Virus genome (UHGV): UHGV-1375174
Length of the DNA stretch: 63,697 nucleotides
Direction: 5' to 3' (one strand)
Source of the DNA: a virus
Made by a program: the position numbers and the translations under genes. Of this stretch, positions 4,993 to 54,871 are shown in pieces (position 1 is the stretch's first letter; each line of letters starts with the position of its first letter). The notes below the pieces were generated by a model that saw only the letters and a list, made by a program, of their open reading frames with translations, had not been told where the DNA came from and made no database searches.

Positions 4993-4997
4993 AAATC

Positions 4998-29000: not shown

Positions 29001-30035
29001 GCTTTCATGGCTTATTCAGTAGCTTGTGGTATTCCACATGCACTACTGTGTAGGTGGCTTATGGGTGATGATGACGATGGTGTAAGTAAGTATGATAAGA
29101 TTCCTGACTATATCAAGGACAGTAACTTTATTATACCTGCACCTTTTGGTGATGGTGGTTATGTAAAGATCCCGTTGCCGTACGGTTATAATATCTTTTG
29201 GGTAGCTGCAAATGCTATGGAAGGTGTAATCAGCGGACGCACCAAGCCTTCCTCTGCCGCTGCTAAAATCTTTGGTGCTTCATTTGATAACTTCAATCCT
29301 ACTGGTGGAGCTTCCATGTTGAACTTCTTGCCTACTATCTTCCGTCCTATCGGTGAAGTAGTAGCTAATCAGAACAGCTTTGGTTATGCTCTTATGCCTG
29401 AAAGTACACATAGCTTTAAGGGTGAAGTACCTGACAGTCAGAAGTACTGGGGTACTAATCCTATGTGGTGTCGTGCTGTGGCAGAGACACTGAACTCTTG
29501 GACATTTGGGTCTAAGGTTGAAAAGGGTTGGATTGATGTGTCTCCTGAAACCATCCAGCATCTTACTGAATCGTATATGGGTGGACTTGGTAGGGTAGTC
29601 ACACAAGCTCTTGGCATGTTGACTTCTCCTGTTACTGGTGCTCCTATTGAGTTGAAGAATGTACCTATTGCTAACTCTTTCTTCGGTAAGGTTGGTTATG
29701 GTGATACACTTAATGAGTACAGCAAGATTCGGAATAAGATGCAGACTGGCTTGAATGAACTTGAGCTTGCACAGAAGGATACAACTCTTTCTCCTGATGA
29801 ACGTACTGAGATTAGAAACAAGAACAGAACTATTCAGCAGCTCAAGGGTAGATATGATTCTATCAATGCTCGCTTGAATAGCGTTCGCAAGCTTGAGAAG
29901 TTGAATGAAAAGAACAACAAGTCTACGGGTACTAAGTTCTACGAAGAAAAGGAAAAGCTGCAGAAGCGCAGAGAATTTTTGATGAAGGAACTTACTCGTG
30001 TGGCTAAGCAGTCAGGTCTTGACTATAGGGATTAA
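23055..30035 (+). CDS. Giant virion-module protein (2326 aa) with an HExxH (zincin-like) motif and extensive coiled coils
   Basis: A single uninterrupted ORF of 6.98 kb. LLMHEGVAHYGL (HExxH) lies near residue 1000. There are long helical, charged K/E/Q/A-rich segments. It is the last large gene of the structural operon. Confidence 0.6.
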   Translation: MALDGVLNTDVSAAQAYAAAQAAPISSGVQPYSVVMVPGLTEQGPLQDVLAQQAAYPRQQFTTSVPVGSGAPRRAAPAVSAQPTFSSFEQEMPAYGGYSQPFEYQEPKPEHGEYVKGFLRSIPQTQALVAAGGAALADLMGHEQTAGDLMYYAQQKQEEAQAPELKAAVESYKDVDSIQKFGDYFASLLGEQTLNVGMSLASGGVGAAAGKRVLAGALSGAIEKKTAQLVASGVAEAEARAAATKAVTATVGAQIGAMAPEFVLNTGENYSGNYAEGGLLTSNPGMDIGTGILQSAVTLLGGESQLLRKMTGVKVPDSVERSFKEKLKASALSLPKAMIGEGAEEYTQEWLGAVNSMIQDGRAQLTADDFDRMMEAGIAGALVGSASGGASVMVDMFKHSPKTDIPYVNPDQTPLELQTKFEEELTKIDPFTQISKGEGIMRDAIRVEAQKAVAASEESFARARNPIVNALRKTKDELTTARAGTSPKYALLATQEAKDAYVKKLERDQQKYAAQLARLAQAQREDIKQRKQQFEKDLSESDKKARKAFRETVTERFKNLGYDTNLTAEQIVDDRRYQEALFKKDPVKYTEIINSIQDTQQYVQRKLNRADEHMSKLQARKGEYNVFLELLLQNAIPYNDRQYEFVTSELARIDKELAQTNRLKAEVRKSAVNLARSAARSQDLSEIQTNMDALFAKADRLDPAVPFELDLRKQLKDLSDKETQERIDALLKNARALRSTAKLTNDPTYTWDADFADWQAAQMGTSNQQAALPSADAFSQRYGALQQNVALEQAAALNNQVDLDRVAADQYMRNMIAEQQQRAYEASPAYQAQLKVAQDKASYDNALDGNIPERQAIPQETSQARRDLEAEQLKRMYKQEQRSKQIRNNIETQRQSFERYTQQEKEVDFQLAAEATQQVYDWMKNTLTQLPGLKDVVSICSSVTDSNVPTAVHDALVNLSFKNTDKKAIPQAVYCDGKIYVFADRVKSKAQAVRLLMHEGVAHYGLRAIMTPRQFTGFMAAVYRDAYGTPLWKEFERQRPAYENANDLVRTEEFIAWIAERESPKSLLERLPVIRDLYKFIRKLYQKLFGVDGYVTEADVKDVLAASAQNLASNKPQGVSSNYTIWGRATYMSTALNDVAPQYERVDLVGADDFSAPYGWGTYFSNPMKLAEYYKRFNNKQSGLPGQVYKNYAPSFEQFMNWERPLSEQRYVAEHLNRLFKQMPPQQIPAQDGMHIQFLGKDIGVFLDKNELTQFMKNKGYLERVTGQDVYEYLVSQSNNTKQISSMLRDLGVAGTTFNYNNAQSYCLFEGDNISHTTPAYSSPEVRFMVDEDTTYTDMPPLYLEEWKRAQMNQQTWTDRMVKIKNTGKSVGMDGKIIPHTGFERFVEGMYDKYRRIQIVQRYIKDTIGKNVIAPATNIYRHMTGMVNRINSIRTDIMNQRIAPLCEQIGKLDIPAVKEALDDLRKAGRKVTEQDRVNATWSALDEFLLARHALERNAEVNRRYRGKNKLESPSGLSDQQAQAIIDKYSDVPGMNEIAAQFDQLGRYHLDMLDKYRIVPKTLTDKLRATYKHYVPLKNWEEFIDDLDPDYAHKRSKAGISVGGRELLKKAKGREGLAESPSTHLMLQIMDTVNIGEKNDVSRRLLNLVREVPNEDLWEIATDKNEKGQPYFRMSEKGDGTLYYVRKSHGLEGEGHKFINVIDDKGNRVRIAIKDVALAAALRNENTVETGAVINFIRKMTQKFSALLTTYNPVFAIKNYPRDIQTAIFNVGNVISEAQANNLLGKENNIRQRIIKDATSFRMVKFLWSEMNGKEYTGKDAAYLKEMYKNFVDFGGHTRMFLANDYKTMYKDVRELSKQKGNLRKTLDGALKYLDTISDVSENATRFSVFVALTQEFDNHIAQEAKRNGWSAQQMQEMMDTAHQRAANEALEITVNFTRKGSWAPLFNSLWAFSSANIGGNVRILRNLWRRGDSFANNAKRTAAFMAYSVACGIPHALLCRWLMGDDDDGVSKYDKIPDYIKDSNFIIPAPFGDGGYVKIPLPYGYNIFWVAANAMEGVISGRTKPSSAAAKIFGASFDNFNPTGGASMLNFLPTIFRPIGEVVANQNSFGYALMPESTHSFKGEVPDSQKYWGTNPMWCRAVAETLNSWTFGSKVEKGWIDVSPETIQHLTESYMGGLGRVVTQALGMLTSPVTGAPIELKNVPIANSFFGKVGYGDTLNEYSKIRNKMQTGLNELELAQKDTTLSPDERTEIRNKNRTIQQLKGRYDSINARLNSVRKLEKLNEKNNKSTGTKFYEEKEKLQKRREFLMKELTRVAKQSGLDYRD

Positions 30036-32394: not shown

Positions 32395-32578
32395 GTTCTA
32401 TATCCTCGTTAGTTGCAGGTTTAAAGTTTTTACACGTGGAGCAGTAGTCTTCATAGTCACGCCAAGCATTGCAACAATCCCAGTAAGGATAGTCTTTACA
32501 CCAGTGGCATGTCTCAGGCGTCTGTTCCACTTTCTTCCGTGTGTGGAAGAACGTATACAAGATCTCTAGCAAGCGCAT
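32387..32578 (-). CDS. Small Cys-rich protein (63 aa)
   Basis: CHWCKDYPYWDCCNAWRDYEDYCSTCKNF. It overlaps the 3' end of thyX by 65 nt, so its start is uncertain. Confidence 0.3.
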   Translation of the reverse strand: MRLLEILYTFFHTRKKVEQTPETCHWCKDYPYWDCCNAWRDYEDYCSTCKNFKPATNEDIEHD

Positions 32579-33203
32579 CTACTTCCTCCTTGTAAAGCTG
32601 ATAGATATCTTCAAACACAGGCGGAAAGAGTTTGTGCATATCACTCAGCAGCTGTAGCATAATGTACCGCATGTCTGGGTGAGCGTCCTTTGCACACCTA
32701 AGCTTAAGAATAGTTCTCCACTCTCGAAGATTTGCAGTTACTACAATGTCAGTAGCCAAAGAGTTTGGCAACACAGCACGAGCTACCTGTGGAGAATAGC
32801 CAGCTTTAATAAGATTGTTATACACAACCTCACACTCTTGCATATGCCAACCCCATGCATTCATTGAGTCAACATCTAACTCAGTGCTAGGCTTTACGAA
32901 CTCAATGTCCTTATCCTTGTAGTTGCAATATCGAGTACTTTCTTGAGCGAAACTCGCAAGGCGGTGACGCACCAGTTCATGAGAGACACCACGGTCAATC
33001 CGAAAGTGTGCAGTAGCGTGCCCGTGTTCGAGCATAGCTTCGTGCCCTCGACGTACAAGTCGCTCGATGAAAGCCACGTGAGAAGTTTCATTGATCTTAT
33101 CCTCCGATTTGTAACAGGTACGTCCAGCATCTTCAATCGTTTGCATGATGAAGTGTGGAGCAGATTGCAAAGAGACTATAACAGAAGGATCAATTACTTT
33201 CAT
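32514..33203 (-). CDS. thyX: Flavin-dependent thymidylate synthase ThyX
   Basis: The ThyX signature RHRLASFAQESTRY (RHRxxSxxxxSxRY) is present, along with HEAMLEH and RAVLPNS. The protein is 229 aa. Confidence 0.85.
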   Translation of the reverse strand: MKVIDPSVIVSLQSAPHFIMQTIEDAGRTCYKSEDKINETSHVAFIERLVRRGHEAMLEHGHATAHFRIDRGVSHELVRHRLASFAQESTRYCNYKDKDIEFVKPSTELDVDSMNAWGWHMQECEVVYNNLIKAGYSPQVARAVLPNSLATDIVVTANLREWRTILKLRCAKDAHPDMRYIMLQLLSDMHKLFPPVFEDIYQLYKEEVDALARDLVYVLPHTEESGTDA

Positions 33204-34137
33204 GAGCAGCCTTCAGGTAGATGCTAGGGTCTTGGAAACCATACATCGTAAAGCCTGCTGCATTCTTATGACCACGGATACCAGCAACGGTAGTAAGGTC
33301 GTTATCACCTTCAGAGCGCATACTGAAGTGCCATTCCTTTCCGTCCCAGTAGTACCAGCCAAAGCCAAAGTAACTATCATCAAGCTTCTGCATAGGGAAG
33401 TCATAGCTATCAGAAAGCTTTGAGTTCACCATAAGGAACTTCTTGCCTTCAATCACCATGTCGTGCACATTACGTTCTCGTTCCTCAGCAAGACCAAGGC
33501 GATACATGTGTGCAACATTACCCATGTTGATAAGCTGCAAGACTACATCCCACTTCATACGCTTAGCACGTTCTTCGTCAGGTGCATCTGCAGGAAGAGT
33601 GTCAATAGTTTCAAAGCACGCTTTCCAGAACTCATAACCATCTTCCGTAGCAGGGTCGGTGATGATGAGCTTCATTCCTGTGATGAAAGGAACAATGCGT
33701 TCGTCTGCTTGATGATCCCACACATCATACCTACCAGTCATCCACACAGCAGGAGGCATCTTGGCTTCACCCATAAAGGTTCCCCAAGTAATCTCACAGC
33801 CAGATTGATAGATACTGTGGTACACACGGATGTAAGGCTTAGTGTCTGTACCTGTCGTATCGTAATCCTTAGCCCACACAGAAGACTTGTGGTGGTCAAC
33901 AACTACGATAGGAAAACCTTTGTCATGAAGAGCCTTGAGGTCTTCTTCAGTAGGACAGAAGTCAAGGAACACAAGCCGAGCACCAGCTTCGAGATCACCG
34001 AACATCTTGTCAGAGTCATACCCGTAGTTAATGGAGCGAAGGTCAAGCTCTTCGTTCTGGTCACAGGAGTACTTGAACACAGCAGCAGCACAATGCCCGT
34101 CAGCATCTTCGTGGTAAAAGACATACGTACTAGGCAT
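33190..34137 (-). CDS. DHH-family phosphoesterase (315 aa)
   Basis: DHH motifs are present: HEDADGH (DxD), FLDFCP, and VVVDHHKSS (DHH). Confidence 0.55.
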   Translation of the reverse strand: MPSTYVFYHEDADGHCAAAVFKYSCDQNEELDLRSINYGYDSDKMFGDLEAGARLVFLDFCPTEEDLKALHDKGFPIVVVDHHKSSVWAKDYDTTGTDTKPYIRVYHSIYQSGCEITWGTFMGEAKMPPAVWMTGRYDVWDHQADERIVPFITGMKLIITDPATEDGYEFWKACFETIDTLPADAPDEERAKRMKWDVVLQLINMGNVAHMYRLGLAEERERNVHDMVIEGKKFLMVNSKLSDSYDFPMQKLDDSYFGFGWYYWDGKEWHFSMRSEGDNDLTTVAGIRGHKNAAGFTMYGFQDPSIYLKAAHESN

Positions 34138-35791: not shown

Positions 35792-36918
35792 TCATAATCC
35801 CTTATGGCTGTGACTACGGGGTTTCCGATGGGGGTTCCATCCTTAGAGAAGTCAGAGCAACGTACTGTTGCCTTCTTACCTATCCAAGTATTGAAGTCTA
35901 AACAACCCCTCCGATATGCTTCTTGTCGTTGTGCTTTTGTCCAGCATGGAACAGAAGAGAAAGGTTTACCTTTGTTAAAGAACTCAAAGATAATACATTT
36001 ATCTACGTCTGCTGAGAACCCTGTGACTTTGTATTCAGTGTCTCTAAAGTTCTTATACTTCAGAAGATCATAAGACCTAACACCTTGCCGATACTTAGCA
36101 CTGTACTTACGCAGCATCAGTCCTTCATATCCTTCTGCAAGATAGTCTTCTTGTTTCTTCTTTATATTAACTATTCCTTTGACATAGTCAATAGGGCAAG
36201 CCACAACTTTTTTAAGATCTTTATCTGCAAGCAAAGCACGGTAACGTGCAATGCGTTCAAACTGAAGTTCTTCACTGATAGTGTCGTACACCCAGTACTG
36301 CAACTTGTTTGTGGCAGGACTGTATGCTTTGACAGCAGACACTATATCTTGCAGTGGCATACCATGACAGTAGATCTCACCGTCCCATGCACACCCATCA
36401 GGCATAACTTCAAACAACTCTTTGCAGAGTTTGTTATGATGATACAAGACATCATATACTTTACCTGTTCTTGACAGGAAAGTTATCTTGTCACCATGTC
36501 TTTGAACTGTACAACGTACACCGTTGAGCTTGGGTTGACAGATATAGATCGTGTCGTCATTGACTTTGTTTTGATGATCTATATAAGACTGAGCTAGCAT
36601 AGGACGAATAGGGAGAGCAGACAACTCAGCCTTGCTCTTCCTGTATCCCTTATCAAGCTGCTTCTTGAACCTAGACTTAGTTTCATTTACAGCTTGTTGT
36701 AGCGCAGTCGTAGCATTCTTCTTACCAGCATTCTTACCACAGTCATAGGAACGAGTAGTCTCCTTAAGAGTACCACCTTCGTAACCAGACTGAATAAGTA
36801 TGCTGGCTGTACCGTCTTCGTTTTCATACGCATGAGCTTGCCACGTCATTGTCTTGCCGTTAGCTGTCAGTGCATAAAGAAGAGCGGTACTATATGCTTT
36901 TACGCTGCCTTCTTGCAT
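35788..36918 (-). CDS. ATP-dependent DNA ligase (376 aa)
   Basis: Motif I CQPKLNGVRC (KxNG adenylation lysine), motif IV EGLMLRK, and motif V DLLKYK. Confidence 0.85.
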   Translation of the reverse strand: MQEGSVKAYSTALLYALTANGKTMTWQAHAYENEDGTASILIQSGYEGGTLKETTRSYDCGKNAGKKNATTALQQAVNETKSRFKKQLDKGYRKSKAELSALPIRPMLAQSYIDHQNKVNDDTIYICQPKLNGVRCTVQRHGDKITFLSRTGKVYDVLYHHNKLCKELFEVMPDGCAWDGEIYCHGMPLQDIVSAVKAYSPATNKLQYWVYDTISEELQFERIARYRALLADKDLKKVVACPIDYVKGIVNIKKKQEDYLAEGYEGLMLRKYSAKYRQGVRSYDLLKYKNFRDTEYKVTGFSADVDKCIIFEFFNKGKPFSSVPCWTKAQRQEAYRRGCLDFNTWIGKKATVRCSDFSKDGTPIGNPVVTAIRDYE

Positions 36919-37178
36919 TTGTCTTCCTTTGTATCGGTAAGAGTAATAACTTCATTAGGTGAAGTTTCTTTCACATATCTATCATTAACCACTCCTGTGG
37001 AATTGTCAACAATATCTTCTGCTACTTTCTTACTCAACTTACCAAACACTCGGACAGACTTCTTTGTCTTACCACAACGAGAGCACTTGAACTGTTCGAC
37101 TTCAATGCGGATGATGTCATACGCAGTGCCAGTCCACATCTCAGTGCGTTCCCAGTTGTGGTCTTTGAGCCAACACAT
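36900..37178 (-). CDS. Zinc-ribbon protein (92 aa)
   Basis: FKCSRCGKTKK plus further Cys residues. Confidence 0.4.
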   Translation of the reverse strand: MCWLKDHNWERTEMWTGTAYDIIRIEVEQFKCSRCGKTKKSVRVFGKLSKKVAEDIVDNSTGVVNDRYVKETSPNEVITLTDTKEDKCKKAA

Positions 37179-37648
37179 TACCCCAAGGTTAAACTCCTTT
37201 CAAGAGCGTGCAGTTTGACATGCTCTTGTCTAGTCATTATGATTAAGTTATTAACTTTATTATTAGTACGAACACCGTCGATATGATGAACTACCATACC
37301 TTTAGGTAAGTATGCCAACCCTGCATGTTTACATGCTACAAGTATGTGTGAAAGAACATACGTTGAACAGGAAGATAATCGACGTTTATGCCCTGCCCAC
37401 CAAGAAGGAGTTCTACTCTTGTAGTATCCTGCTCCGTTTAATTTAGGTGTTCTATCTTTACAAGGTACACGATGACAATAAGATGTATTTTTAATACACT
37501 GCTTAGTGTGATCTTTTATATCTCTGTAAGCTTCATGGACAATCTTTGATACTAAGTATCGAGAGCGTCCAGTCAATAAAGATATTACACGTATAGATAA
37601 ACCTAAATCAAACGCATACAGAAGGAGACTTCTCTCCTCCGTTGTCAT
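37178..37648 (-). CDS. HNH homing endonuclease, copy 1 (HNH_3-like, with an N-terminal HTH)
   Basis: HILVACKHAGLAYLPKGMVVHHIDGVRTNNKVNNLIIMTRQEHVKLH. It is paralogous to four other ORFs in 38.6-46.1 kb. Confidence 0.8.
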   Translation of the reverse strand: MTTEERSLLLYAFDLGLSIRVISLLTGRSRYLVSKIVHEAYRDIKDHTKQCIKNTSYCHRVPCKDRTPKLNGAGYYKSRTPSWWAGHKRRLSSCSTYVLSHILVACKHAGLAYLPKGMVVHHIDGVRTNNKVNNLIIMTRQEHVKLHALERSLTLG

Positions 37649-37661
37649 AGATTACCTCAGC

Positions 37662-37970
37662 TTATGCTGCGTGACGGTAATGTTCGTGCTCCTTATACCC
37701 TTCCATCTTACGGACTTTCATATCAGCAATCAGGCGGATAGCAGAAGCAGCAACCTGACAGGCTTCTTCACAAATCGCAGTAGTGTCACGCCATCTCTCC
37801 GGTTTGTAAAGCTCATGTTTCAGCTCGGCCATCTCCTCTTTGAGAATCCAAGCAGAATGCTCGATAGACGGATGCGTCTCAGGGTGGCGTTTATGCGCGT
37901 CCTTGATGGCTTCCTTTACTTCTTCGAGTGCTTCCATGTTTGCCTGTTCTATCAGTCTTTCGTTCGACAT
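37662..37970 (-). CDS. MazG-like nucleotide pyrophosphohydrolase (102 aa)
   Basis: All-helical small protein with an EEMAELKHELYK (EExxE) metal-binding motif and HEHYRH. Confidence 0.45.
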   Translation of the reverse strand: MSNERLIEQANMEALEEVKEAIKDAHKRHPETHPSIEHSAWILKEEMAELKHELYKPERWRDTTAICEEACQVAASAIRLIADMKVRKMEGYKEHEHYRHAA

Positions 37971-38373
37971 TAGTACTATTACTCTCAGCTAAGGTATCAG
38001 GCTTCCAACACGAGTAGCCGTGTCGTTTAGCCCACGTTTTGTACGTGGTGGGGTTCTTTGTAGACCGAGAGATAACTTTATCTTCAAGCATGAAGACGAA
38101 GCGTATATCTAAGTCTGGATGTTGCTCACGAATCTGAGCCATCTTACTTCGCATAGAGGGATCAAAGTATCCCTTTGCTTCGACAAAGAACTCCTCACCG
38201 TCTGGAAGTGTAACCTTAAAGTCAGGTTTATAATATCGTACAGCGGGCTGCCAAGGAATACGACAAGGTTCATACTCCCACTTGATACCAAGCTCGTCGA
38301 ACTTTTTAGCAAGCTCTGCTTCAAACTTAGAAGCAAACCTTGTCTTGTTATAGGTTGATTTTATAGATCTCAC
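37891..38373 (-). CDS. Putative PD-(D/E)xK-type nuclease (160 aa)
   Basis: KPDFKVTLPDGEEFFVEAKGY resembles the D...E-x-K core. It overlaps the downstream start by 80 nt, so the boundaries are uncertain. Confidence 0.35.
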   Translation of the reverse strand: MRSIKSTYNKTRFASKFEAELAKKFDELGIKWEYEPCRIPWQPAVRYYKPDFKVTLPDGEEFFVEAKGYFDPSMRSKMAQIREQHPDLDIRFVFMLEDKVISRSTKNPTTYKTWAKRHGYSCWKPDTLAESNSTNVERKTDRTGKHGSTRRSKGSHQGRA

Positions 38374-38391
38374 ATATGCACACTACCTCTG

Positions 38392-38577
38392 TTAAGGCAA
38401 CCAGATAACCTTAGCCAGCTGAGCAGTATCCACAAGAGGAGATTCATAACCACAACCAAAACATTTAACAAAGAACATCCCGCTCATCGTTTTGTATATG
38501 TCAAGATGTTTACTGGAACATACTTGGCATGTACTCCCGTTTTCCAGCGGGCACAATTTCATAACTGGCTCGTCCAA
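38392..38577 (-). CDS. Zinc-ribbon protein (61 aa)
   Basis: CPLENGSTCQVC...CFGCGYES. Confidence 0.35.
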   Translation of the reverse strand: MDEPVMKLCPLENGSTCQVCSSKHLDIYKTMSGMFFVKCFGCGYESPLVDTAQLAKVIWLP

Positions 38578-38594
38578 AGTTTACCTCCAATGCA

Positions 38595-39113
38595 TTATAC
38601 ACTGTACTCACGTACATACAAAGACTCCTCATCTATTGCACGACACAACCTTCTATTTCTATGCAGCTTAGCATGATCTTTGTGTAGCATAAGTACTAAG
38701 TTTTTACCTCTATTATCTGTCTTGTTTCCGTTGATGTGATGTACTGCATAACCGGTAGGAAGTTTGTCTAAACCCATACGCTTACAGCAAACAAGATGGT
38801 GGGACAGAGTTCGTCCTTTCGATGTTGTGCCCTTCCACCACTTCGGTGTAGTTGACCATAGGTATGCATTATACAATCTTGGCCCAGCATATGTAGGTTT
38901 ATAAGCTCTCCTAAAGTTTTCCTGTCGTTTAACTTCTGAGCTACGCTTACGCCTAAAGTCTTTAGAACATAGTATATTCATCCAGTTATGTAATATCTTG
39001 CTGTCTACACCATACTTCTTAGAAAGCTTTCTAATAGAGGTAGTGGTTTCAAATAAATCTGTCATAAACGATAGAATATCAAAACCTTTAGTTAGACCTA
39101 AAGACAAACTCAT
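38595..39113 (-). CDS. HNH homing endonuclease, copy 2
   Basis: HLVCCKRMGLDKLPTGYAVHHINGNKTDNRGKNLVLMLHKDHAKLH. Confidence 0.8.
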   Translation of the reverse strand: MSLSLGLTKGFDILSFMTDLFETTTSIRKLSKKYGVDSKILHNWMNILCSKDFRRKRSSEVKRQENFRRAYKPTYAGPRLYNAYLWSTTPKWWKGTTSKGRTLSHHLVCCKRMGLDKLPTGYAVHHINGNKTDNRGKNLVLMLHKDHAKLHRNRRLCRAIDEESLYVREYSV

Positions 39114-39538
39114 TATTGCATAACATACTCCGGTTGAGTGTCAATCAGCGGTGAAGACATATACCCCTTGCTGAAGTCAAACTCACCATTAACCAAAGCC
39201 TGATACAGCACAGATGCAAGCGTAGATATCTGCGTGTGGTTGAGCTTGAGGTCAGAGTGAACATCTGCAAATTCAATCAGTTCATGAATCATATTGCTGC
39301 CAAAAATGGCGGGCTTTTCAGGATTGTGGTATGCACTGATGGTAGTCGTCTGAGGATCATATTGTGCAAGTACAACATCAGTCTGCTGACCGCCCTCCAC
39401 TACCTCGATAGGGTCACTGAAAACTTTTACGCTTACGTCGTGACCGAACACGCTGAGCGAGCTAGGATAATCCATATTAGATACCTGCCTTTGCAATGTC
39501 TTGAATGTTTTGTTCAAGCATCTGTATGGTACGCTCAA
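39113..39538 (-). CDS. Hypothetical protein (141 aa)
   Basis: ORF. The start may be an internal Met. Confidence 0.4.
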   Translation of the reverse strand: MSVPYRCLNKTFKTLQRQVSNMDYPSSLSVFGHDVSVKVFSDPIEVVEGGQQTDVVLAQYDPQTTTISAYHNPEKPAIFGSNMIHELIEFADVHSDLKLNHTQISTLASVLYQALVNGEFDFSKGYMSSPLIDTQPEYVMQ

Positions 39539-39671
39539 GTTCTGCTTCCGTCATGAGCTTGGCACGAATGCCAACATCCACGAGAAGAATGGGAAGGTTG
39601 AATACAACCAGCGTACCCCAGTACACATTGGCTACACACCGCCAGATAGTCCCAAAGAATTTCTTAATCAT
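39477..39671 (-). CDS. Small membrane protein (64 aa)
   Basis: WRCVANVYWGTLVVFNLPILLVDVGI is a hydrophobic segment. Confidence 0.3.
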   Translation of the reverse strand: MIKKFFGTIWRCVANVYWGTLVVFNLPILLVDVGIRAKLMTEAELERTIQMLEQNIQDIAKAGI

Positions 39672-39886
39672 TCTTGTACCTCCACAGTTTGAATAGTGTA
39701 TCGCACCCAGTCTGTCTGTTCGAGTTTATTAAACTCTTCAAGACCAGAACGACCCAAGATAACAGCATGAACGTAGGCTATTTCTTCTACGACAGGCTCG
39801 CTTCTTGTTTCCAGCCTAAGAATTACGTCTGCTTTCATAACTACTCCTGTAATAGGTGAGGTAACCTTAGCTACCTCACCTTGCAA
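39668..39886 (-). CDS. Hypothetical protein (72 aa)
   Basis: ORF coupled to the downstream gene. Confidence 0.35.
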   Translation of the reverse strand: MQGEVAKVTSPITGVVMKADVILRLETRSEPVVEEIAYVHAVILGRSGLEEFNKLEQTDWVRYTIQTVEVQE

Positions 39887-39896
39887 AAGTTAAACA

Positions 39897-40166
39897 CTAT
39901 GCAGTTGCCTTCGCTGCTAGGATATCTTTGAGAGGAGCTACGTATTCAAACCGTTCCTTCTGTTGCACATCAGGATACTTCTCCTTATCTACATCAGACA
40001 AGAACTCAGCGACAGGTCTAACGAACAGCTTGCGATCTCCATAAAGGGAACGATAAACAACGAACTCGTTTGTGTCAAGATTCGCATCTTTAGCAACCCC
40101 AAGTACGAGATACTGATTGTTCTTGAAATGCTTCACAACAGTCATCGGCTCAAGCTTATTCATATT
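39897..40166 (-). CDS. Hypothetical protein (about 89 aa; internal start MNKLEPMTVV of the ORF 39897-40283, with an ATGA overlap to the upstream stop)
   Basis: The internal ATG at 40166 forms ATGA with the stop of 40165-40449. Confidence 0.4.
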   Translation of the reverse strand, partial: NMNKLEPMTVVKHFKNNQYLVLGVAKDANLDTNEFVVYRSLYGDRKLFVRPVAEFLSDVDKEKYPDVQQKERFEYVAPLKDILAAKATA

Positions 40167-40449
40167 ACACCCACTCGTCGGTTTGTGGTACGTTGACTTT
40201 ACCAAGTTCTTTGCCTTCGGACACACGCAAGTTATACCATCTGCACATGTCAGTCCAGTACGCATACTTACAATGTCCTCCATACTTCTTATGCCAGAAC
40301 ATCAGAGTATCAAGAATGTTTGCAGGCCACTTCCATCCACCATCTCTACGTGTCATGTACGCACGAGTAGACAGAGTCGTGTACGAGTTACCTCCAAACA
40401 AAGCATTGAGAAACTGATTCAAAGCAAGAAGCCATTGTGGTGTAGTCAA
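40165..40449 (-). CDS. Hypothetical protein (94 aa)
   Basis: ORF. Confidence 0.4.
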   Translation of the reverse strand: MTTPQWLLALNQFLNALFGGNSYTTLSTRAYMTRRDGGWKWPANILDTLMFWHKKYGGHCKYAYWTDMCRWYNLRVSEGKELGKVNVPQTDEWV

Positions 40450-40648
40450 GCATTAGTCCTCTACAGTTGAGATATCCTTCATAACCTTGAAGCAACGAAC
40501 GAAGTCGTCTTCCTTCAAAGTAACCTTGATACCAGACCGAAGTTGCACATCGACAATACCCTTGTCTCTATATGTAACGATGGCAGGTATCTTCAATTCA
40601 TATCTAATCACTACACATTCACCTCCTTAAAGAATCTCCCACGTTGAT

Positions 40649-41017
40649 CTAAGCTTGTACATGAGGTGCCTCCTCTTCAATGACAATGTATCTTTCCGTG
40701 AGCTCCTTGTTAGGAACAACGTACCATTCGTTATCCGCAGGATCGACCTTAAACCAATCGCCAACGCGGATAGTCATAGCGTAAACGATAAGGCCGTCTT
40801 CGTCCCTTTGTATGATGTCAATCATAGGATCGACTTCCTGCTTGTGTACAAGAAGTTCAAGTCCTAGATCAGCCCACACCTTAGACAGCTCAGAGAACTG
40901 CTCATCAGTGTATCTAATTGCGTACTCGATGGGCGAGTCTTCACACCACTTAGGGTTATATCTTACCTTGAGCATCTTTCCACTCCTTGTATTGGTTGTG
41001 CACTTTAGCATGTTCAC
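40649..41017 (-). CDS. Hypothetical protein (122 aa)
   Basis: ORF. Confidence 0.45.
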   Translation of the reverse strand: MNMLKCTTNTRSGKMLKVRYNPKWCEDSPIEYAIRYTDEQFSELSKVWADLGLELLVHKQEVDPMIDIIQRDEDGLIVYAMTIRVGDWFKVDPADNEWYVVPNKELTERYIVIEEEAPHVQA

Positions 41018-41354
41018 TTTTTGTAAGAACAGCTAGATTGTTTATGTCATTATTTAGCTTGTTCATATCAATGTGATGAACTTCATATCCTTTTGGTAGC
41101 TGTGTCCAACCAAACTTCTCACACACCAGTAGGATATGCTCTCTAACAAAACCTCTTGATACATACCCTGTGTACCATGAAGGTGGACGAACCGCCTTAT
41201 AACCTTTTATGGAAGATACACCATCAAGTTTGTATCTAGGATTTTGTAGACCACAAAATGTAGTACTTTTGATAGCAGCTTGCTTATGCATCTCTTGCTG
41301 TGTAGACAGCAAAGGTACTTGCCTCATGATATCATACAACACATTGCGGTGCAT
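40956..41354 (-). CDS. HNH homing endonuclease, copy 3 (the ORF extends to 41606 but overlaps the upstream gene; the likely start is an internal Met)
   Basis: HILLVCEKFGWTQLPKGYEVHHIDMNKLNNDINNLAVLTKSEHAKVH. Confidence 0.65.
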   Translation of the reverse strand: MHRNVLYDIMRQVPLLSTQQEMHKQAAIKSTTFCGLQNPRYKLDGVSSIKGYKAVRPPSWYTGYVSRGFVREHILLVCEKFGWTQLPKGYEVHHIDMNKLNNDINNLAVLTKSEHAKVHNQYKEWKDAQGKI

Positions 41355-41439
41355 ACCTACTGTGCGTGAAATAAAACTATAGGACAAAGGGAAGAAGCTG
41401 AGTGCCAGAGAAAGAAATAAAAGAGTAAGACCTTTACGT

Positions 41440-42348
41440 CTAGCTCCCCATGTTTTGCTTTTTGTATTCTGCATATTGGTTGCACCAGTTTTTGACTGGA
41501 CAATATTTCTCACATCTGGTTCTCTCACCCGGTCGAAACTCAACTTTGTACTCAGAGCCAAGTCTCTTGTGGCGAATGTACTCATCTGCTTCTTCACGAG
41601 TGTCACAAAGTTTTGTGGCCTTCGCTGCTCCTACCTTGTAAACGGCATACTTAGCAGGCTTCTCCCAGCATTCGTCCGGAGTGCATACTGGCAGCATGTC
41701 GTCGCTACAGGATTCGGCCTCCACGTGTAGACGAAGGCGTTCCTTGTAGTAGGACTCGCGCTCTTCAAGAGGCAGCACGCGGTAGCGGAATTCGTTGAAA
41801 GGTAATTCGGGATACTTGTCATCTTTGTACCGTCCAGATTGAGGTCTCCAATCCATATAGATGGCGTTGATAGCAACATCTTTTACCGGATACCCCTCCT
41901 TCTCAAGGAAGTACGCATTGATGTTGAGCTGGTCAATCCATTCTTTCTTACCAGTGCTTCCGTGCATATACGCGGAGCAAGTTTTCCAGTCGGAAAGAGT
42001 CTGTGTCTCTTTATCATAGAGGTCAAACTTTGCGACGACCCGTCTGTATGTTGACTCATCGCCTCCATCAGGCTTGTCAAAGCGTGTGACTTTACGTTCG
42101 ACCAGATACTTTGGATTCTTTGAAAGAGCTGATTCCATCTCATGATGTACTGCGTTACCTCTCCAGACATACCATTGATCCATCAGGTCTTCGACAATCT
42201 CATGCTTGTGTCTCTTGTAGAGCTGCACATAACGTGGACTATCAATCAGTGATGTAGCACTGTAGTCTGATGCACCAACAGGGTCATAAGGTTGAGGTTG
42301 AAGGGCGTCCTCAAATGCTTTGGGCAGACGATACTTGTTTGTGTACAT
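41440..42348 (-). CDS. Cas4/RecB-like PD-(D/E)xK exonuclease with a C-terminal Cys cluster (302 aa)
   Basis: The C-terminus C...CEKYCPVKNWC resembles the Fe-S cysteine cluster of Cas4/AddB-type nucleases. It lies in the replication module. Confidence 0.4.
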   Translation of the reverse strand: MYTNKYRLPKAFEDALQPQPYDPVGASDYSATSLIDSPRYVQLYKRHKHEIVEDLMDQWYVWRGNAVHHEMESALSKNPKYLVERKVTRFDKPDGGDESTYRRVVAKFDLYDKETQTLSDWKTCSAYMHGSTGKKEWIDQLNINAYFLEKEGYPVKDVAINAIYMDWRPQSGRYKDDKYPELPFNEFRYRVLPLEERESYYKERLRLHVEAESCSDDMLPVCTPDECWEKPAKYAVYKVGAAKATKLCDTREEADEYIRHKRLGSEYKVEFRPGERTRCEKYCPVKNWCNQYAEYKKQNMGS

Positions 42349-42442
42349 AACACTCCTAAAAAGAAAAGGCCAGTATATGATGTATATGTTGTCAAGTTAC
42401 ATATTCACACCAATAGACTGGCCTCTTTTGAGTTAAGCTAAC

Positions 42443-42874
42443 TTATCTTACCCAAGCAGGAGTTCCACCGGTAGCAGCCAACGCGGCCTCGCTACCTTCA
42501 ACGCCTTGCGACTTGAGAGCTTTTTCTTGCTCTTCTGTCAACGGTTCATATGTGGGAAGATCTCTGCTCTCACCGAGCTTTTCAACGGAAGCAATGTCCC
42601 ACATATTACCACCTCTGCGAACGAACTTCATGATGACAATGTCACCCGGAGAACATGCCTTCTGGAAGAACTGTACAATAGAACAGTTAGGACGTTCGAT
42701 ACCCTTCTCGATTACTGTGGTAGCAGTGTTCTCAAAGAGAATCTTTTCATAAGGAGTGTTGGGATCTTTATCATAGCCCTTGCGTTCTCCTTTGAGTACG
42801 TAACCAGTAAAGGTACGACCAGCCCTTGACACCAGATCATGTTTCAGTTCGATGCTATCGAAAATAAACCACAT
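42443..42874 (-). CDS. Hypothetical protein (143 aa), possibly an ssDNA-binding protein
   Basis: Lies immediately upstream of the polymerase fragments. There is no firm motif. Confidence 0.35.
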   Translation of the reverse strand: MWFIFDSIELKHDLVSRAGRTFTGYVLKGERKGYDKDPNTPYEKILFENTATTVIEKGIERPNCSIVQFFQKACSPGDIVIMKFVRRGGNMWDIASVEKLGESRDLPTYEPLTEEQEKALKSQGVEGSEAALAATGGTPAWVR

Positions 42875-42933
42875 GGACTTTTCCTATGTTTTCACGCGCG
42901 TATAAAAGAAAGATAAACACGAAAGAAGATTTG

Positions 42934-43830
42934 TCAAGAGAGGAAGGCAGGAAGATCTGCGAAGATCTTATCCATCTCTTCTTCCTTGATCTCTTTCGTA
43001 TTACCATAGTCATACCCTATTTCACAGTCTCCTGTCAAGGGTACCACAATATCCCAACCAAAGTATTCTTTAGCAAGTTGAGGAAGACTGTGTATCAGTT
43101 TGAGAGCTTCACGACATAACGTCTCTGCTTCTTCGATGGGAGAATCAAATACCATAGAGTCATGCACTTGAAGAATCAAGTTAGCCTTGAGACCGAGTTC
43201 TGCTACTCGTTCTATGAACTTAACCATACCTAGATACATAATGTCAGATGAGGCAGACTGAACAGGATAGTTCTTTACCTGCTTGACATCAACGGATTCA
43301 ATACCATTACGTACTTCTTCATCAAACGTAAGCACACGTCCAGAAGGATTACGTAAGTATCCACGTGCGGCTGCAATCTGTGCGTTCTCGTCTTGCCAAC
43401 GCTTCAAGCCTTGATACTTTGCATAGAATGCGTTAACAATCTCTCTCCATCTCTTTAAGCTATAGTCAGGCATACGCTGGTCTCGATAGAAACCTTCAGC
43501 GGAACCACCATAGAGAAGACGAAAGGACATTGTCTTAGCAGCTGTACGAACTTTCTTGAACTCTTTCGAGCCACGTTCATACTGGCCAGCATCAAAGAAT
43601 CGGATAGCATTGTCAGCATGAATGTCCAGACCTGTATCCAATTCATGAAGCATGACAGGATCTCTACTCAACTCAGCGGCTATGCGCCATTCAATCTGAG
43701 CTAAGTCAATGTTTACAATAACCCCTTGTTTGCTTTTAAAGAATGTTTTGATGGGGCTGGTACCATTACGGGGAAAGTTCTGCCCATTCTCAAATTTTGT
43801 ATGTCGATCAGCTAAACATACTTCCCACAT
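42934..43830 (-). CDS. Family-A DNA polymerase, C-terminal fragment (polymerase motifs A, B and C)
   Basis: Begins at the NLQNIP-equivalent ENGQNFPRNGTSPIKTFF. Motif A is NIDLAQIEWRIAAELS, motif B KKVRTAAKTMSFRLLYG, motif C LQVHDSMVFD. An in-frame stop lies 9 codons upstream of the ATG. Confidence 0.85.
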   Translation of the reverse strand: MWEVCLADRHTKFENGQNFPRNGTSPIKTFFKSKQGVIVNIDLAQIEWRIAAELSRDPVMLHELDTGLDIHADNAIRFFDAGQYERGSKEFKKVRTAAKTMSFRLLYGGSAEGFYRDQRMPDYSLKRWREIVNAFYAKYQGLKRWQDENAQIAAARGYLRNPSGRVLTFDEEVRNGIESVDVKQVKNYPVQSASSDIMYLGMVKFIERVAELGLKANLILQVHDSMVFDSPIEEAETLCREALKLIHSLPQLAKEYFGWDIVVPLTGDCEIGYDYGNTKEIKEEEMDKIFADLPAFLS

Positions 43831-43846
43831 TACTGTGGTAATTGGA

Positions 43847-44437
43847 CTATATCATCAAGAGTAGACAGTACCTAAAGAGTAAGCCTACCCAAGCTGGGCG
43901 CTGTCCTATGTCTTCATAGGCGCTTAGTCTCTGCACCTTCTTCAGTATTGCATGAATACGTCTGTGCTGACCAGACTTTAACAAAGCTAGATTCCAAACC
44001 TCATTGCACAACTTATCACCGTTAACATGATGAACGTGTATTCCTTTTGGAACCTGTGTTATACCATCTCTTTTACAGGCAACGACATGATGCACAAAAA
44101 CTTTACTAGAGTTTCCACGTGTTCCCAAAAACCATCGCGGCTTATAGACTAAAGCATAACCATCATTGTCTATCGTAATACCACCTGTATAAAAAGGACT
44201 GTGCTTTCCTTTCCTGTTATACATAGTGTTTAACTTACCAAGCTGCGCTCGTCTATAGTTCTTGGCTTTACGTGTTTTTCTTTCTTCTTCTGAAAGTCTA
44301 TTCTTAGCTACTCGCCATATAACTTTAGTACTAGTCTTTAGTTCATCAGCAATTTGTTGATATGTAAAGGATGTATTGATTAAGAGATGATATGCTTGTT
44401 CATGCACTGAAGCTTGGCTCATGATTGCCCTCAGCAA
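43847..44437 (-). CDS. HNH homing endonuclease, copy 4, inserted between the two polymerase fragments
   Basis: HHVVACKRDGITQVPKGIHVHHVNGDKLCNEVWNLALLKSGQHRRIH. It is 33 nt from the N-fragment stop and 16 nt from the C-fragment start. Confidence 0.8.
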   Translation of the reverse strand: MLRAIMSQASVHEQAYHLLINTSFTYQQIADELKTSTKVIWRVAKNRLSEEERKTRKAKNYRRAQLGKLNTMYNRKGKHSPFYTGGITIDNDGYALVYKPRWFLGTRGNSSKVFVHHVVACKRDGITQVPKGIHVHHVNGDKLCNEVWNLALLKSGQHRRIHAILKKVQRLSAYEDIGQRPAWVGLLFRYCLLLMI

Positions 44438-44470
44438 TCTCTGTTAGGGTTTCCATGAGTTCACCCAGTT

Positions 44471-45607
44471 TTACAACCCCAATGGGTACTTAGGGTTGGA
44501 AGAAGAGAGTCTACCTGTACGTGTGATGCACTGGTTAAAGGAAGGATGAAGCCTATCATCTTTACCGATGACAGCAATCAGTCCTGCCTCTTTCTCTTCT
44601 TTAGAACCAGCAATTGAGGACACTACTTTCATCAGCTTCTTCTGATCTCGTAGTGTTTGAAGGAAGGACTCAGAGCGTTTGTCACGAGACTTTAACAAAT
44701 CAAGTGTGTTCTTATCAGTTGAAGGCAAGCCGGTCTTCTTAGACAAGCAGCCGTCTGGAACTTTAAAACCAAGTCCCTTGATAGGGATCTCAATCTTAGT
44801 CTTACGTGTGGTGATCTTAAACTTACCGCTCTTTAGCTGACGAGCTACAAGTTCAGGAACTTCTTTCTTCCAAGAACCACCAAATAAAACAGCACTGAGT
44901 TGTGAAGCAGAGGAGGGAGTAAAGTCAATACCAGCCAGATCGACCAGCGTCTTGTCCATTGCTTTAACCTGTTCACGCGTTTGGTTACAGTAAGCAATAG
45001 CTTCTTCTTTGTCGAAGGCTGCACCAGATACTTCCATGTCAGAAAGGATCTGGGTTAGACGGAAAGAAAGTTCCGTTATCTTGCCAAGGCTTGCACGCTC
45101 AATGAGCGGGAGTTGTTTCTTGAACACGTCATGTGTAAGATGTACGTCCTGCTTGAGATAGTCTTCATGAATCTCCAACGGAATCTCATCCGTCTCGTAT
45201 CCAGCTTGCCAATACATAGCCATAGCATCGAGCTTATGCCCTAAGCCATAGCGTTTGGCAACAGCATTCAAACTATACTCAAGTTTGCGCTGACCATTTA
45301 TGAGATAGTCAGCTACCATCGTACACCAGACTGGCTTGTCCTTGACATTCAAACCAATCCACTTCAACCAGTTCAAGTCGAACTTAATGTTGTGTCCAAT
45401 CAAGAAGTCAACACTGTCAATCTCTTGTTGGATTTCAGCAAGAAGTTCTTCATGTGGTCTATCATTCGGATTGAAGAACCACACAGTTGAGGTACCATCT
45501 TGGCGTTCGATTCCAACAGAGCACAGATACGAGCCTATTGTCCAAGGCATATGCTTCGGTGCTTTAGAACATTCCACATCCAAAACTACGTAGCACGCTT
45601 TAGACAT
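44471..45607 (-). CDS. Family-A DNA polymerase, N-terminal fragment (3'-5' exonuclease domain plus the start of the polymerase domain)
   Basis: Exo I VVLDVEC, Exo II GHNIKFDLNWL, Exo III YLKQDVHLTHD. It ends ...TRTGRLSSSNPKYPLGL*, inside the conserved TGRLSSxxPNLQNIP motif. Confidence 0.8.
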   Translation of the reverse strand: MSKACYVVLDVECSKAPKHMPWTIGSYLCSVGIERQDGTSTVWFFNPNDRPHEELLAEIQQEIDSVDFLIGHNIKFDLNWLKWIGLNVKDKPVWCTMVADYLINGQRKLEYSLNAVAKRYGLGHKLDAMAMYWQAGYETDEIPLEIHEDYLKQDVHLTHDVFKKQLPLIERASLGKITELSFRLTQILSDMEVSGAAFDKEEAIAYCNQTREQVKAMDKTLVDLAGIDFTPSSASQLSAVLFGGSWKKEVPELVARQLKSGKFKITTRKTKIEIPIKGLGFKVPDGCLSKKTGLPSTDKNTLDLLKSRDKRSESFLQTLRDQKKLMKVVSSIAGSKEEKEAGLIAVIGKDDRLHPSFNQCITRTGRLSSSNPKYPLGL

Positions 45608-46074
45608 AAATAACTATCTCTAGCCAAGTTATGGATACGCACATGCTCTTTCTTAGTTATTAGTTGAAGATTATACCAACGATTATCTGTACGAATACCA
45701 TTGATATGATGGACACACATACCTTTTGGCAAGTAGGTTAGTCCATGTCTCTTACAACATACAAGCACATGAGAGAACACGTAGTTTTGTGCACATTCAG
45801 TACCAGTCCACCATGATGGAGTATGACTACGATAATAACCTGAACGTGTTAAAGATGGCCCAACTTTTCTTTTTGATTTATCAGCATTATGTTTAACAAG
45901 TACAGCTCTAAGTCTAGATGCAAGTGCCGTTAAGAATAAATCTTTGACACGCAGTACAGAGGGAATAGTTCTCTCATGAATATCAGCAATGTCTTCATAT
46001 GACATAAGCGTATTGGTTATATACCAATGTATGCTACTGATTTCATCTTTAGACAGATACCGACTTGTTGACAT
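45586..46074 (-). CDS. HNH homing endonuclease, copy 5
   Basis: HVLVCCKRHGLTYLPKGMCVHHINGIRTDNRWYNLQLITKKEHVRIH. It overlaps the start of the polymerase N-fragment by 22 nt. Confidence 0.75.
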   Translation of the reverse strand: MSTSRYLSKDEISSIHWYITNTLMSYEDIADIHERTIPSVLRVKDLFLTALASRLRAVLVKHNADKSKRKVGPSLTRSGYYRSHTPSWWTGTECAQNYVFSHVLVCCKRHGLTYLPKGMCVHHINGIRTDNRWYNLQLITKKEHVRIHNLARDSYLCLKRAT

Positions 46075-46075
46075 A

Positions 46076-46303
46076 CTACTTACTCGACTTAGCTTCGGTC
46101 GTCACGGTAGGCTCATCAAGCGAGAGAGACATCGTGGCTACGTTATTTGCTGCCTCAGCTTTCGTATAGTCTTTAAGCGCAGTCAGCATATCGACGAGGG
46201 AGAGATCGCGCAGAGCAAGACCAGTTTCCTGTTCCAACTTAGCAACAAATTCTTCGAAAGCGATATCAGCCTGAGCAATAACCTTGTTAGTGAATACGGA
46301 CAT
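46076..46303 (-). CDS. Hypothetical protein (75 aa)
   Basis: ORF. Confidence 0.35.
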   Translation of the reverse strand: MSVFTNKVIAQADIAFEEFVAKLEQETGLALRDLSLVDMLTALKDYTKAEAANNVATMSLSLDEPTVTTEAKSSK

Positions 46304-47703: not shown

Positions 47704-48052
47704 GAGTTAAGGTCAACCTTCTAATTCAGAAATAATATAGTCTTAATGTTCAAAGCATTAGTTACCTATAGTACTTATGAATTAAGAGTTAGGTTTAGTC
47801 TTAGGATAATATACTTATTAAGGTATTTACGTAGTAGGTTATTTAAGATATTATACTTAAGTAAGGTTAAGTAACGGCTAAGATATACTTAGATATATTA
47901 TAATACTTAATTAAGTAAAGTCAAGGATACTTATTAAGATACTTAATATATTAACCTAAAGGTTTTATCTTTAGGTTTACCTGTTAAGTAACCTATAGTA
48001 CTATAGGTATAAGATCAAATACCTGCTTGTCAAGTACCTGTCTGCACATTTG
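47704..48052. repeat. AT-rich iteron region: at least 6 copies of ATACTTA(n)TTAAG-type repeats plus a duplicated ACCTATAGTAC. A candidate replication origin
   Basis: aatatacttattaagg, ttatacttaagtaagg, gatatacttagatat, taatacttaattaagtaa and ggatacttattaagatacttaatat. acctatagtac occurs at about 47764 and about 47989. No ORF is present. It lies between the helicase and primase genes. Confidence 0.5.
47990..48034 (-). promoter_or_regulatory. Candidate promoter (minus strand, cTTGACAa then TATACC at 16 bp) upstream of the iteron region and the helicase gene
   Basis: The reverse complement of 48027-48034 is cTTGACAa. Confidence 0.35.
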
Positions 48053-54311: not shown

Positions 54312-54871
54312 TTCTTACCGCCCTTGTTATTCTGCTGCTGAGGCTTGGGCTGCTTGGTTTCCACCTTGAGGGCAGCATCACTGGGAACCACATCAGCAAC
54401 GGTGGGAGCAGGGGCCGGAGTGGGAGGAGTCATCTCCACCACACCAGCGTCGACAGTCACGGGAGCAGGGGCAGGCTGGCCGATCTGCATACCGAGACGT
54501 TTGGCCACGGACTGGATGGCACGCTTCGCTTCATCAGGATTGTTTCCCGCAACAGTGTGCAGTTCCTGCATGATGTTGCCGGAGCCACCAGTGGTGGGGC
54601 CGGTGGGAGTCACGTTGAAGACGGGGCGAACATTGCGACCAGTCCACTTGCCCACAATCCAGTCGAACCCTTTCTGCACACCGGCGCAAGCCAACGCAGC
54701 GATGGCACCGCCAATACCAGTGACGATGGCACCCTGAACCTGCTGGCCAAGGGTACCGGACTGCGAAGGATTGACCGAGGTGGCAATGGTGATGCCTTCT
54801 TTCGGGCCGTTCTGGTTGCCACCCTTCTGCTTCTGCTGGTTCTGGTTGTTGTTGTTCTGATCACCGCTCAT
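54308..54871 (-). CDS. Gln/Asn/Gly/Pro-rich low-complexity protein (187 aa)
   Basis: N-terminal NNNQNQQKQKGGNQNG. A Pro/Ala/Thr-rich segment. A C-terminal QQQNNKGGKK. GC-rich coding. Confidence 0.4.
   Translation of the reverse strand: MSGDQNNNNQNQQKQKGGNQNGPKEGITIATSVNPSQSGTLGQQVQGAIVTGIGGAIAALACAGVQKGFDWIVGKWTGRNVRPVFNVTPTGPTTGGSGNIMQELHTVAGNNPDEAKRAIQSVAKRLGMQIGQPAPAPVTVDAGVVEMTPPTPAPAPTVADVVPSDAALKVETKQPKPQQQNNKGGKK

Follow-up and report, generated by a model that had tools for sequence, protein, structure and literature searches.

The uncultivated phage genome UHGV-1375174 was analysed as a single window of 63,697 nucleotides (nt; genome ~63.7 kb), in which five open reading frames (ORFs) for HNH endonucleases of the HNH_3 type lie within the replication module, one of them inside the DNA polymerase gene polA. 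A sequence-only reading had reported these five genes and their density, and we recovered all of them on the minus strand at the positions first given; they are named here HNH_A, HNH_B, HNH_C, HNH_D and HNH_E, for the ORFs starting at coordinates 37178, 38595, 40956, 43847 and 45586. Together they fill ~2.45 kb of an 8.9-kb interval (~28%). A five-copy profile run against all six reading frames of the window returned exactly these five and no sixth copy, and Pfam scans of 20 further window ORFs found no other class of homing endonuclease gene (HEG). The features of the locus are as follows:

37178 to 37648, minus strand: HNH_A, free-standing, 156 amino acids (aa); Pfam HNH_3, 47 bits
38595 to 39113, minus strand: HNH_B, free-standing, 172 aa; Pfam HNH_3, 36.3 bits
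40956 to 41354, minus strand: HNH_C, free-standing, 132 aa, between a PD-(D/E)XK-like exonuclease gene and gene g5; Pfam HNH_3, 45.8 bits
42934 to 43788, minus strand: predicted polA exon 2, 284 codons, starting AAU GGG (NGQNFPR...); Pfam DNA_pol_A, 134 bits
43789 to 44491, minus strand: predicted group I intron, 703 nt, IA-like, without P2 and with a single P7.1 hairpin
43847 to 44422, minus strand: HNH_D, encoded in the predicted intron, 191 aa from the ATG at 44422; Pfam HNH_3, 30.7 bits
44492 to 45607, minus strand: predicted polA exon 1, 372 codons, spanning the 3'-5' exonuclease domain and the first part of the polymerase domain; Pfam DNA_pol_A_exo1 and DNA_pol_A
45575 to 46069, minus strand: site E cassette, 495 nt replacing 19 nt of the empty allele and carrying HNH_E with a recoded polA N-terminus
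45586 to 46074, minus strand: HNH_E, free-standing, 162 aa; Pfam HNH_3, 48.2 bits

All five ORFs exceeded the Pfam HNH_3 cut-off (PF13392; 24.8 bits) with scores of 30.7–48.2 bits, and each found its best, nearly full-length match in PHROG 7545, "HNH endonuclease". Pairwise identity among the copies is 23–38%, and their alignment leaves invariant (copy A numbering) H101, C106, G110, P115, G117, V120, H121, H122, N130, N134, L135, H143 and H147. Every copy thus keeps the catalytic His, Asn and His of its HNH core, and all five frames are intact rather than frameshifted. Of the longer motif first proposed as common to the family, the HNH core is indeed shared, while the L-V, K and T-D-N-R elements differ between copies. 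By blastp, the five proteins are 30–42% identical (E = 1e-35 to 7e-17) to I-PfoP3I, a nicking homing endonuclease encoded in the self-splicing group IA2 intron of cyanophage Pf-WMP3 polA (PMC3428280); HNH_D reaches 42% over 146 aa (E = 1e-35) and the other four 30–40%. I-PfoP3I in turn scored 133 bits on the five-copy profile, over profile positions 20–157. By homology, the five ORFs are assigned to the I-PfoP3I branch of HNH_3 as full-length homologues of that enzyme. An exhaustive profile search gathered 757 clusters at 50% identity (E ≤ 1e-10), and tblastn located the same protein family in polA of cultured podophages including Providencia PS3, PhAPEC5/7 and Xanthomonas phiL7.

An AlphaFold model of HNH_E (mean predicted local distance difference test score, pLDDT, 83.9) places three helices at residues 9–68, followed by a beta-beta-alpha core with strands at 119–123 and 136–140 and a helix at 141–161. 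The top match of this model in a fold search of the PDB was I-HmuI (1u3e; probability 1.0, E = 0.014), the best structural match for the nuclease core, with identity of ~22% over 89 aligned columns; I-HmuI has the reversed domain order, its HNH domain being N-terminal and its DNA-binding modules following. A sequence profile search of the PDB gave only marginal matches (Cas8-HNH fusions, E ~0.1). The suggestion that several copies bear an N-terminal helix-turn-helix (HTH) is supported for HNH_E, whose modelled N-terminus is helical and HTH-like; HNH_D showed only a weak Pfam HTH match (E = 0.008), and HNH_C lacks the N-terminal part of the family.

One copy had been placed inside polA, and HNH_D (43847–44437 as an ORF) does lie between two polA ORF halves, at 44471–45607 and 42934–43830. 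Translation probably begins at the ATG at 44422, which a GAGG precedes by 6 nt, and not at the TTG at 44437. The intervening DNA has the features of a group I intron. Exon 1 would end ...TGRLSSSNP, its last codons being AAC CCU at 44492 with a terminal U, and joining the two exons gives a continuous frame for a 656-aa polymerase reading ...TGRLSSSNP/NGQNFPR... (slash at the junction), that is, ...TGRLSSSNPNGQNFPR.... An internal guide sequence, CCCAUUGGGGUU, can base-pair with the ends of both exons. The P1 helix so formed (AACCCU/GGGGUU) has a U.G pair at the splice site, and immediately next to it stands P10 (AAUGGG/CCCAUU). Helices P3, P4, P5, P6/P6a, P7, P7.1, P8, P9 and P9.1 can likewise be drawn, with an omega-G at 43789. 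The 5' core occupies ~44408–44491 and the 3' core 43789–43945; the ORF lies in the P6a loop. The coding signals of HNH_D are built into the core, the start codon lying in P4' and the ribosome-binding site (RBS; GAGG) in P5', and the stop codon being the UAG of the conserved GAUAUAGUC (J8/7-P7'). A single hairpin (CCUAUG/CAUAGG, 43905–43920) fits between P7 and P3', where the Pf-WMP3 and Kayvirus introns have two; because group IA2 introns carry both P7.1 and P7.2, we call this intron IA-like.

Related genomes allowed the predicted fold to be examined by covariation. With the spliced polA as query we found 17 contigs in IMG/VR (L002–L019), most of them from metagenome 3300045988, and aligned six intron copies (window, L011, L012, L013, L016 and L017). 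Across this alignment the 69 proposed pairs were paired in 99.3% of cases, as compared to 36–41% when the partners were slid, and seven pairs (in P1, P8, P9 and P9.1), one of them a P1 pair between exon and guide, showed compensatory double changes. Synonymous divergence was 5- to 10-fold lower in the part of the HNH_D ORF that overlaps the 3' core, which is what an added constraint at the RNA level would produce. In E-value mode, the Rfam model RF00028 matched 43823–44039 (32.0 bits, E = 4e-5) and, weakly, 44403–44458. A stretch of 50 nt (44412–44461) is 88–90% identical to the P4-P5-P6 core of annotated group I introns of Staphylococcus Kayvirus phages (phage K/812); the introns matched there (PM32, L001) differ from that of the window in being ORF-less, lying in a different gene and having both P7.1 and P7.2, and show no likeness beyond the core stretch. 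Finally, ten relatives lack the element, and their polA alleles are exactly the ligated exons, to the nucleotide. On these data HNH_D is no gene splitter: it sits in a group I intron, with polA spliced rather than broken, and splicing of this intron in vivo is inferred. A megablast of 12 kb against cultured phages found no close cultured relative, and the best cultured polA match, in Methylophilales phages, is ~35% identical.

The four remaining copies are free-standing; Rfam in E-value mode across the whole window returned the polA intron only, with no sign of an intron around HNH_A, HNH_B, HNH_C or HNH_E. At site A, 461 nt (37185–37645) are inserted directly after an ATG which, in empty alleles, stands ahead of the downstream gene. 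The breakpoints, 37646/37184, correspond to the contiguous bases 16666/16667 of L003, the flanks are 98–99.6% identical, and the stop codon of HNH_A overlaps the ATG of the downstream gene (TAATG). HNH_E begins at the ATG that serves polA where site E is empty, and overlaps, with its own 3' end, the polA start newly created there (ATG at 45607) by 22 nt, in agreement with the report that one copy abuts that start. The blastn breakpoints at this site are 46070/45574 in the window and 8051/8071 in L004. In consequence of the cassette, the polymerase begins MSKACYVVLDV in the window as opposed to MSYCTIDI in empty alleles, and the D-x-E exonuclease motif is kept. The site B insert (38641–39108) is flanked by a 12/13-nt direct repeat, TGCAATA(G)ATGAG; the ATG of HNH_B overlaps the stop of the upstream gene g11 (TAATG), and the sequence for the last 15 codons of HNH_B is found in the empty allele of L002 as well. 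Thus HNH_A and HNH_E take over the RBS and start codon of the gene downstream, and HNH_B is coupled to the stop of the gene upstream.

HNH_C has an alternative in-frame ATG at 41475 that would give 173 aa, the longer form chosen by gene callers on related contigs. At the same place L004-type genomes carry an unrelated 107-aa ORF (L004 11511–11834). The junction retains a 10-nt microhomology, CAACCAATAY, which could be due to chance. We considered whether the exonuclease gene, through its displaced 3' end, had given rise to the C-terminal tail of HNH_C and rejected this, the tail being right-flank sequence common to the 107-aa ORF of L004. Placement beside small zinc-ribbon genes, also part of the sequence-only reading, holds for HNH_A and HNH_B, which adjoin small Cys-rich ORFs (36900–37178, with one CxxC, and 38392–38577, with CxxC...CxxC), and does not extend to the other copies. 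The exact HNH_A protein occurs on 14 contigs, and the exact HNH_B protein has entries in 230 blocks of the collection; the carrier contigs inspected measure ~51–64 kb for HNH_A and 61.6–63.1 kb for HNH_B and come from many metagenomes.

We then compared the occupancy of each site in the window and the 17 relatives:

Site A, between the mazG-like gene and g15: occupied in the window only; empty in all 17 relatives
Site B, between g11 and g12: occupied in the window; a different lineage is present there in L009
Site C, between the exonuclease gene and g5: occupied in the window and 10 relatives; five others carry the 107-aa ORF
Site D, the polA intron: occupied in the window, L011, L012, L013, L016, L017 and L019; empty in 10 others
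Site E, between g2 and the polA start: occupied in the window, L002, L003 and L007; empty or different in 13 others

Presence and absence vary at every site, and the junctions are exact to the nucleotide. The insertion-free alleles that had been proposed as a means of defining the homing sites were found among these relatives (for example in L002, L003 and L004). The empty positions lie around L003 16666 for site A, L002 7665 for site B, L004 11472 for site C, L003 11117 for site D and L004 8060 for site E. Four extra sites are occupied only in relatives: between g12 and the endonuclease I gene (L002 7919–8422), between g11 and g12 (L009 7536–8051), between g17 and an M15 peptidase gene (L011 16166–16651) and between the ligase gene and g17 (L013 10554–11156). 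The final ATGA of the extra L011 copy overlaps the start of the peptidase gene. On a further contig, L031, a 317-aa ORF (3741–4694) has both HNH_3 and Phage_endo_I Pfam matches, and looks as though the neighbouring resolvase gene had fused with an HNH gene at the g12/endonuclease I site.

HNH copies group according to insertion site and not genome, with amino acid identities of 69–99% at site C, 75–92% at site D and 84–100% at site E. Where the comparisons held enough substitutions (sites C, D and E), the ratio of non-synonymous to synonymous substitution rates (dN/dS) between orthologues was 0.11–0.36, and for HNH_D 0.12–0.20; the HNH orthologues are under purifying selection. The intron of L017 (11114–11716) is 603 nt long as compared to 703 nt, a 100-nt deletion having broken the frame of the HNH ORF and left all core helices intact. 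It represents a decaying endonuclease in a probably still functional intron, a stage of decay expected in the homing cycle.

Divergence beside the insertions is also apparent. Patches of 60–80% identity lie beside sites B, C, D and E in genomes that are 99–100% identical to the window elsewhere, namely 5' of B (39200–39350), 3' of C (40550–41000), 3' of D (43100–43700) and 5' of E (46100–46250). The block in polA exon 2 (43100–43700, ~600 nt) is 72–80% identical to L003, L004, L005, L010 and L016, with 99–100% identity on both sides, and in a second block of this exon, ~100 nt long, the haplotype switches in the opposite set of genomes. Because identity blocks in exon 2 switch between sets of genomes in this way, the polymerase gene is a recombination mosaic. 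Nuclease genes have been found at boundaries of genetic exchange, a pattern that the divergent flanks seen here match, and clustering of HEGs near genes for polymerases and the replisome is likewise known (PMC10448857).

The five copies are not the product of a single expansion in this genome. By nearest-neighbour ranking, HNH_A and HNH_E are each other's closest non-orthologous relatives, 53% identical over the C-terminal 86 aa and unrelated in their N-termini, which suggests a common nuclease module with swapped DNA-binding parts. HNH_B groups loosely with lineages at neighbouring sites in relatives. HNH_C and HNH_D each have more than 50 outside cluster representatives nearer to them than any sibling copy, which argues against one expansion within the genome; the five copies are instead a mixture of independent invasions and some diversification within the lineage.

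Together, these observations are best explained if the five ORFs are site-specific HEGs that invaded the replication module at five distinct positions, one copy inside a group I intron and four as cassettes, a reading to which we assign a probability of roughly 85%. The repeated selfish invasion suggested on first inspection of the sequence is in keeping with the precise presence and absence of the copies, their clustering by site, the purifying selection and the homology to I-PfoP3I. Each protein would combine a helical region for DNA binding at the N-terminus with a beta-beta-alpha-metal nuclease at the C-terminus. During mixed infection, by analogy with I-PfoP3I, each enzyme would attack the empty allele, by a nick or a cut, close to where its own gene is inserted; the occupied allele would escape, its target site being disrupted by the insert or by the recoded gene end. 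I-PfoP3I itself nicks the coding strand 4 nt upstream of its insertion site, requires positions –3 to +11 for recognition and does not cut intron-plus DNA (PMC3428280). Repair by recombination would next transfer a copy of the cassette, together with some flanking sequence, to the genome that lacks it. HNH_A would pass translation on through its overlapping stop and start codons, and HNH_E through the recoded polA N-terminus. Nicking, the sequences targeted and the direction in which cassettes are transferred are inferred in this scheme.

A number of points weigh against this explanation. Homing and splicing are predicted here from sequence. At the Rfam gathering threshold (50 bits) nothing was found in the window, the intron score of 32 bits lying below it. 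As a control, the experimentally self-splicing Pf-WMP3 intron scored 31.9 bits with RF00028 (L034 1519–1844), so that a score below threshold is typical of the class; the RF00028 model under-scores introns with a large ORF in P6a. The covariation alignment holds six intron sequences in which most core pairs are invariant and so uninformative on structure either way. HNH_C, without the N-terminal region, may be impaired, and site C is a cassette replacement (the HNH gene versus the 107-aa ORF) and no simple insertion. One comparison at site C gave a dN/dS of 0.78, from only 8 substitutions. The patch 3' of the intron does not strictly track the intron, since L016 combines the intron with the other haplotype, and the intron-less L002 and L007 have the window haplotype; a co-conversion tract is for this reason only suggestive.

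Other explanations differ from homing in how the polymerase is made or in what the nucleases are for. The polymerase might truly be two polypeptides separated by a free-standing HNH gene, with no splicing. The nrdA gene of Aeromonas phage Aeh1, split by mobE, is a model for such an arrangement, and ORF calling yields two polA halves here, each with a possible start codon; the empty result at the Rfam gathering threshold would also fit. The break, however, falls within a conserved polymerase motif (...RLSSSNP/NGQNFP...), the full group I fold shows covariation and a P1/P10 match to both exon ends, the 703 nt are missing to the nucleotide from intron-less alleles, and the homologous Pf-WMP3 element self-splices at the same codon (PMC3428280), which together make two polypeptides extremely improbable. 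The HNH genes might also be domesticated nucleases that benefit the phage as terminase packaging helpers, in the degradation of host DNA or as initiators of recombination. HNH proteins that assist terminase exist in other phages, and the ORFs are under purifying selection. Yet every copy is dispensable in some near-identical genome, clustering by insertion site fits site-specific mobile elements, and the copies lie ~32–41 kb from the presumed terminase and portal ORFs (3577–7085, plus strand), which were assigned by size and position only; Pfam found no family for ORF 3577–4992. None of the HNH genes is adjacent to these ORFs, all of them lying at 37–46 kb on the minus strand, in the replication module, and we regard domestication as very unlikely.

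Some copies could instead be inactive relics that have not yet been deleted, as the truncated HNH_C, the frameshifted intron ORF of L017 and the fusion of HNH to endonuclease I in L031 would allow; with all five window ORFs intact in their catalytic residues and dN/dS at 0.1–0.36 at sites C, D and E where substitutions suffice, we consider this unlikely for the copies in the window, HNH_C being a possible exception. The HNH proteins may further serve as phage weapons, cutting the replication genes of co-infecting relatives that lack the copies and so lowering the yield of the competitor (interference, or the marker exclusion raised in the sequence-only reading). An intron-encoded HNH endonuclease of phage PhiPA3 acts in this manner (PMC11620839), all sites in question lie in or beside essential replication genes (polA, the helicase-proximal g2, the exonuclease and endonuclease I genes and the neighbourhood of ligase), and the many close variants in metagenome 3300045988 make co-infection plausible. 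The patchy occupancy, on the other hand, is what selfish turnover predicts, as opposed to fixation. Sequence does not separate competition from plain homing, the outcomes of which overlap, and the two ideas are compatible; we hold such a role to be possible, with the odds against it.

The closest known system to the homing arrangement favoured here is the polA intron of Pf-WMP3. The insertion codon and phase are the same (TRLSSSKP/NIQQIP in Pf-WMP3, RLSSSNP/NGQNFP in the window), as is the domain order of the endonucleases, with HNH C-terminal. The Pf-WMP3 intron lacks P2 and its ORF spans P6a through P7 (PMC3428280); the window intron is likewise without P2, and in both the ORF starts at ~P4'/P6a and runs through P7. 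I-HmuI-type introns occupy the same polA position (PMC3428280). The two systems differ in that the host phages are unrelated, that the Pf-WMP3 intron is described with P7.1 and P7.2 and that of the window has P7.1 only, and that the window holds the same enzyme family four more times in free-standing form, its proteins being known by their sequences. The free-standing copies resemble the seg and mob HEGs of T4, such as mobE (PMC2790892, PMC2988022), and the HEG clusters near essential genes of ICP1 and other phages (PMC10448857) in being intergenic cassettes beside essential replication genes, in their patchy distribution and divergent flanks and in their dense clustering. Those HEGs, however, belong to other nuclease sub-families (GIY-YIG Seg, T4 Mob HNH, T5orf172 and AP2-linked HNH) and not to I-PfoP3I-type HNH_3, whereas the window has five genes of one sub-family in 8.9 kb, inserted unusually tidily, with start and stop codons reused.

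A more speculative proposal, to which we would give rather low odds, is that the replication module is a "HEG island" in which at least nine site-specific lineages of one nickase family, several of them carrying a recoded end of the neighbouring essential gene (clear for the polA N-terminus at site E), drive block-wise exchange of the replisome among co-infecting relatives and act as weapons in competition. On that view, tidy insertion with start and stop codons reused would have evolved as a means of avoiding polar effects while immunising the carrier. Irrespective of that proposal, the locus offers a natural experiment: dozens of near-identical genomes differ mainly in the occupancy of ~9 sites, for which the empty-site sequences are known. 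In annotations of this widespread, uncultivated phage, polA should be entered as a single spliced gene and not as two fragments with a stray ORF. The Rfam gathering threshold misses a whole class of ORF-bearing polA introns, as the validated Pf-WMP3 intron too scores ~32 bits. Known homing-endonuclease biology is extended by this dense and well-sampled case, which overturns nothing and will not surprise a specialist.

Several further features were recorded in the window. Upstream of the helicase gene, an AT-rich intergenic stretch at 47704–48052 (GC ~0.33) is crowded with direct and inverted copies of words such as TACTTAAGTA and CTTAAGTAT; it may be an origin of replication or a group of clustered phage promoters. 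A single ORF of 2326 aa (23055–30035) stands at the end of the plus-strand structural module. On the minus strand are genes for a ThyX-type thymidylate synthase (32514–33203) and a GNAT acetyltransferase (54868–55272), together with an ORF at 33190–34137 resembling DHH-family phosphoesterases (25.6 bits, short of the 28.1 bits that Pfam requires). The window yielded no tRNA genes. ENA sample codes of related contigs (VISC19, ASCI21, WUHA17, YOKO23) resemble labels of human-gut cohorts which, going by these names only, would point to a gut origin. Related contigs of 63,816 nt, among them one named k119_... and a JGI contig from metagenome 3300045988, are 119 nt longer than the window; this suggests a complete circular assembly with the k-mer overlap trimmed off.

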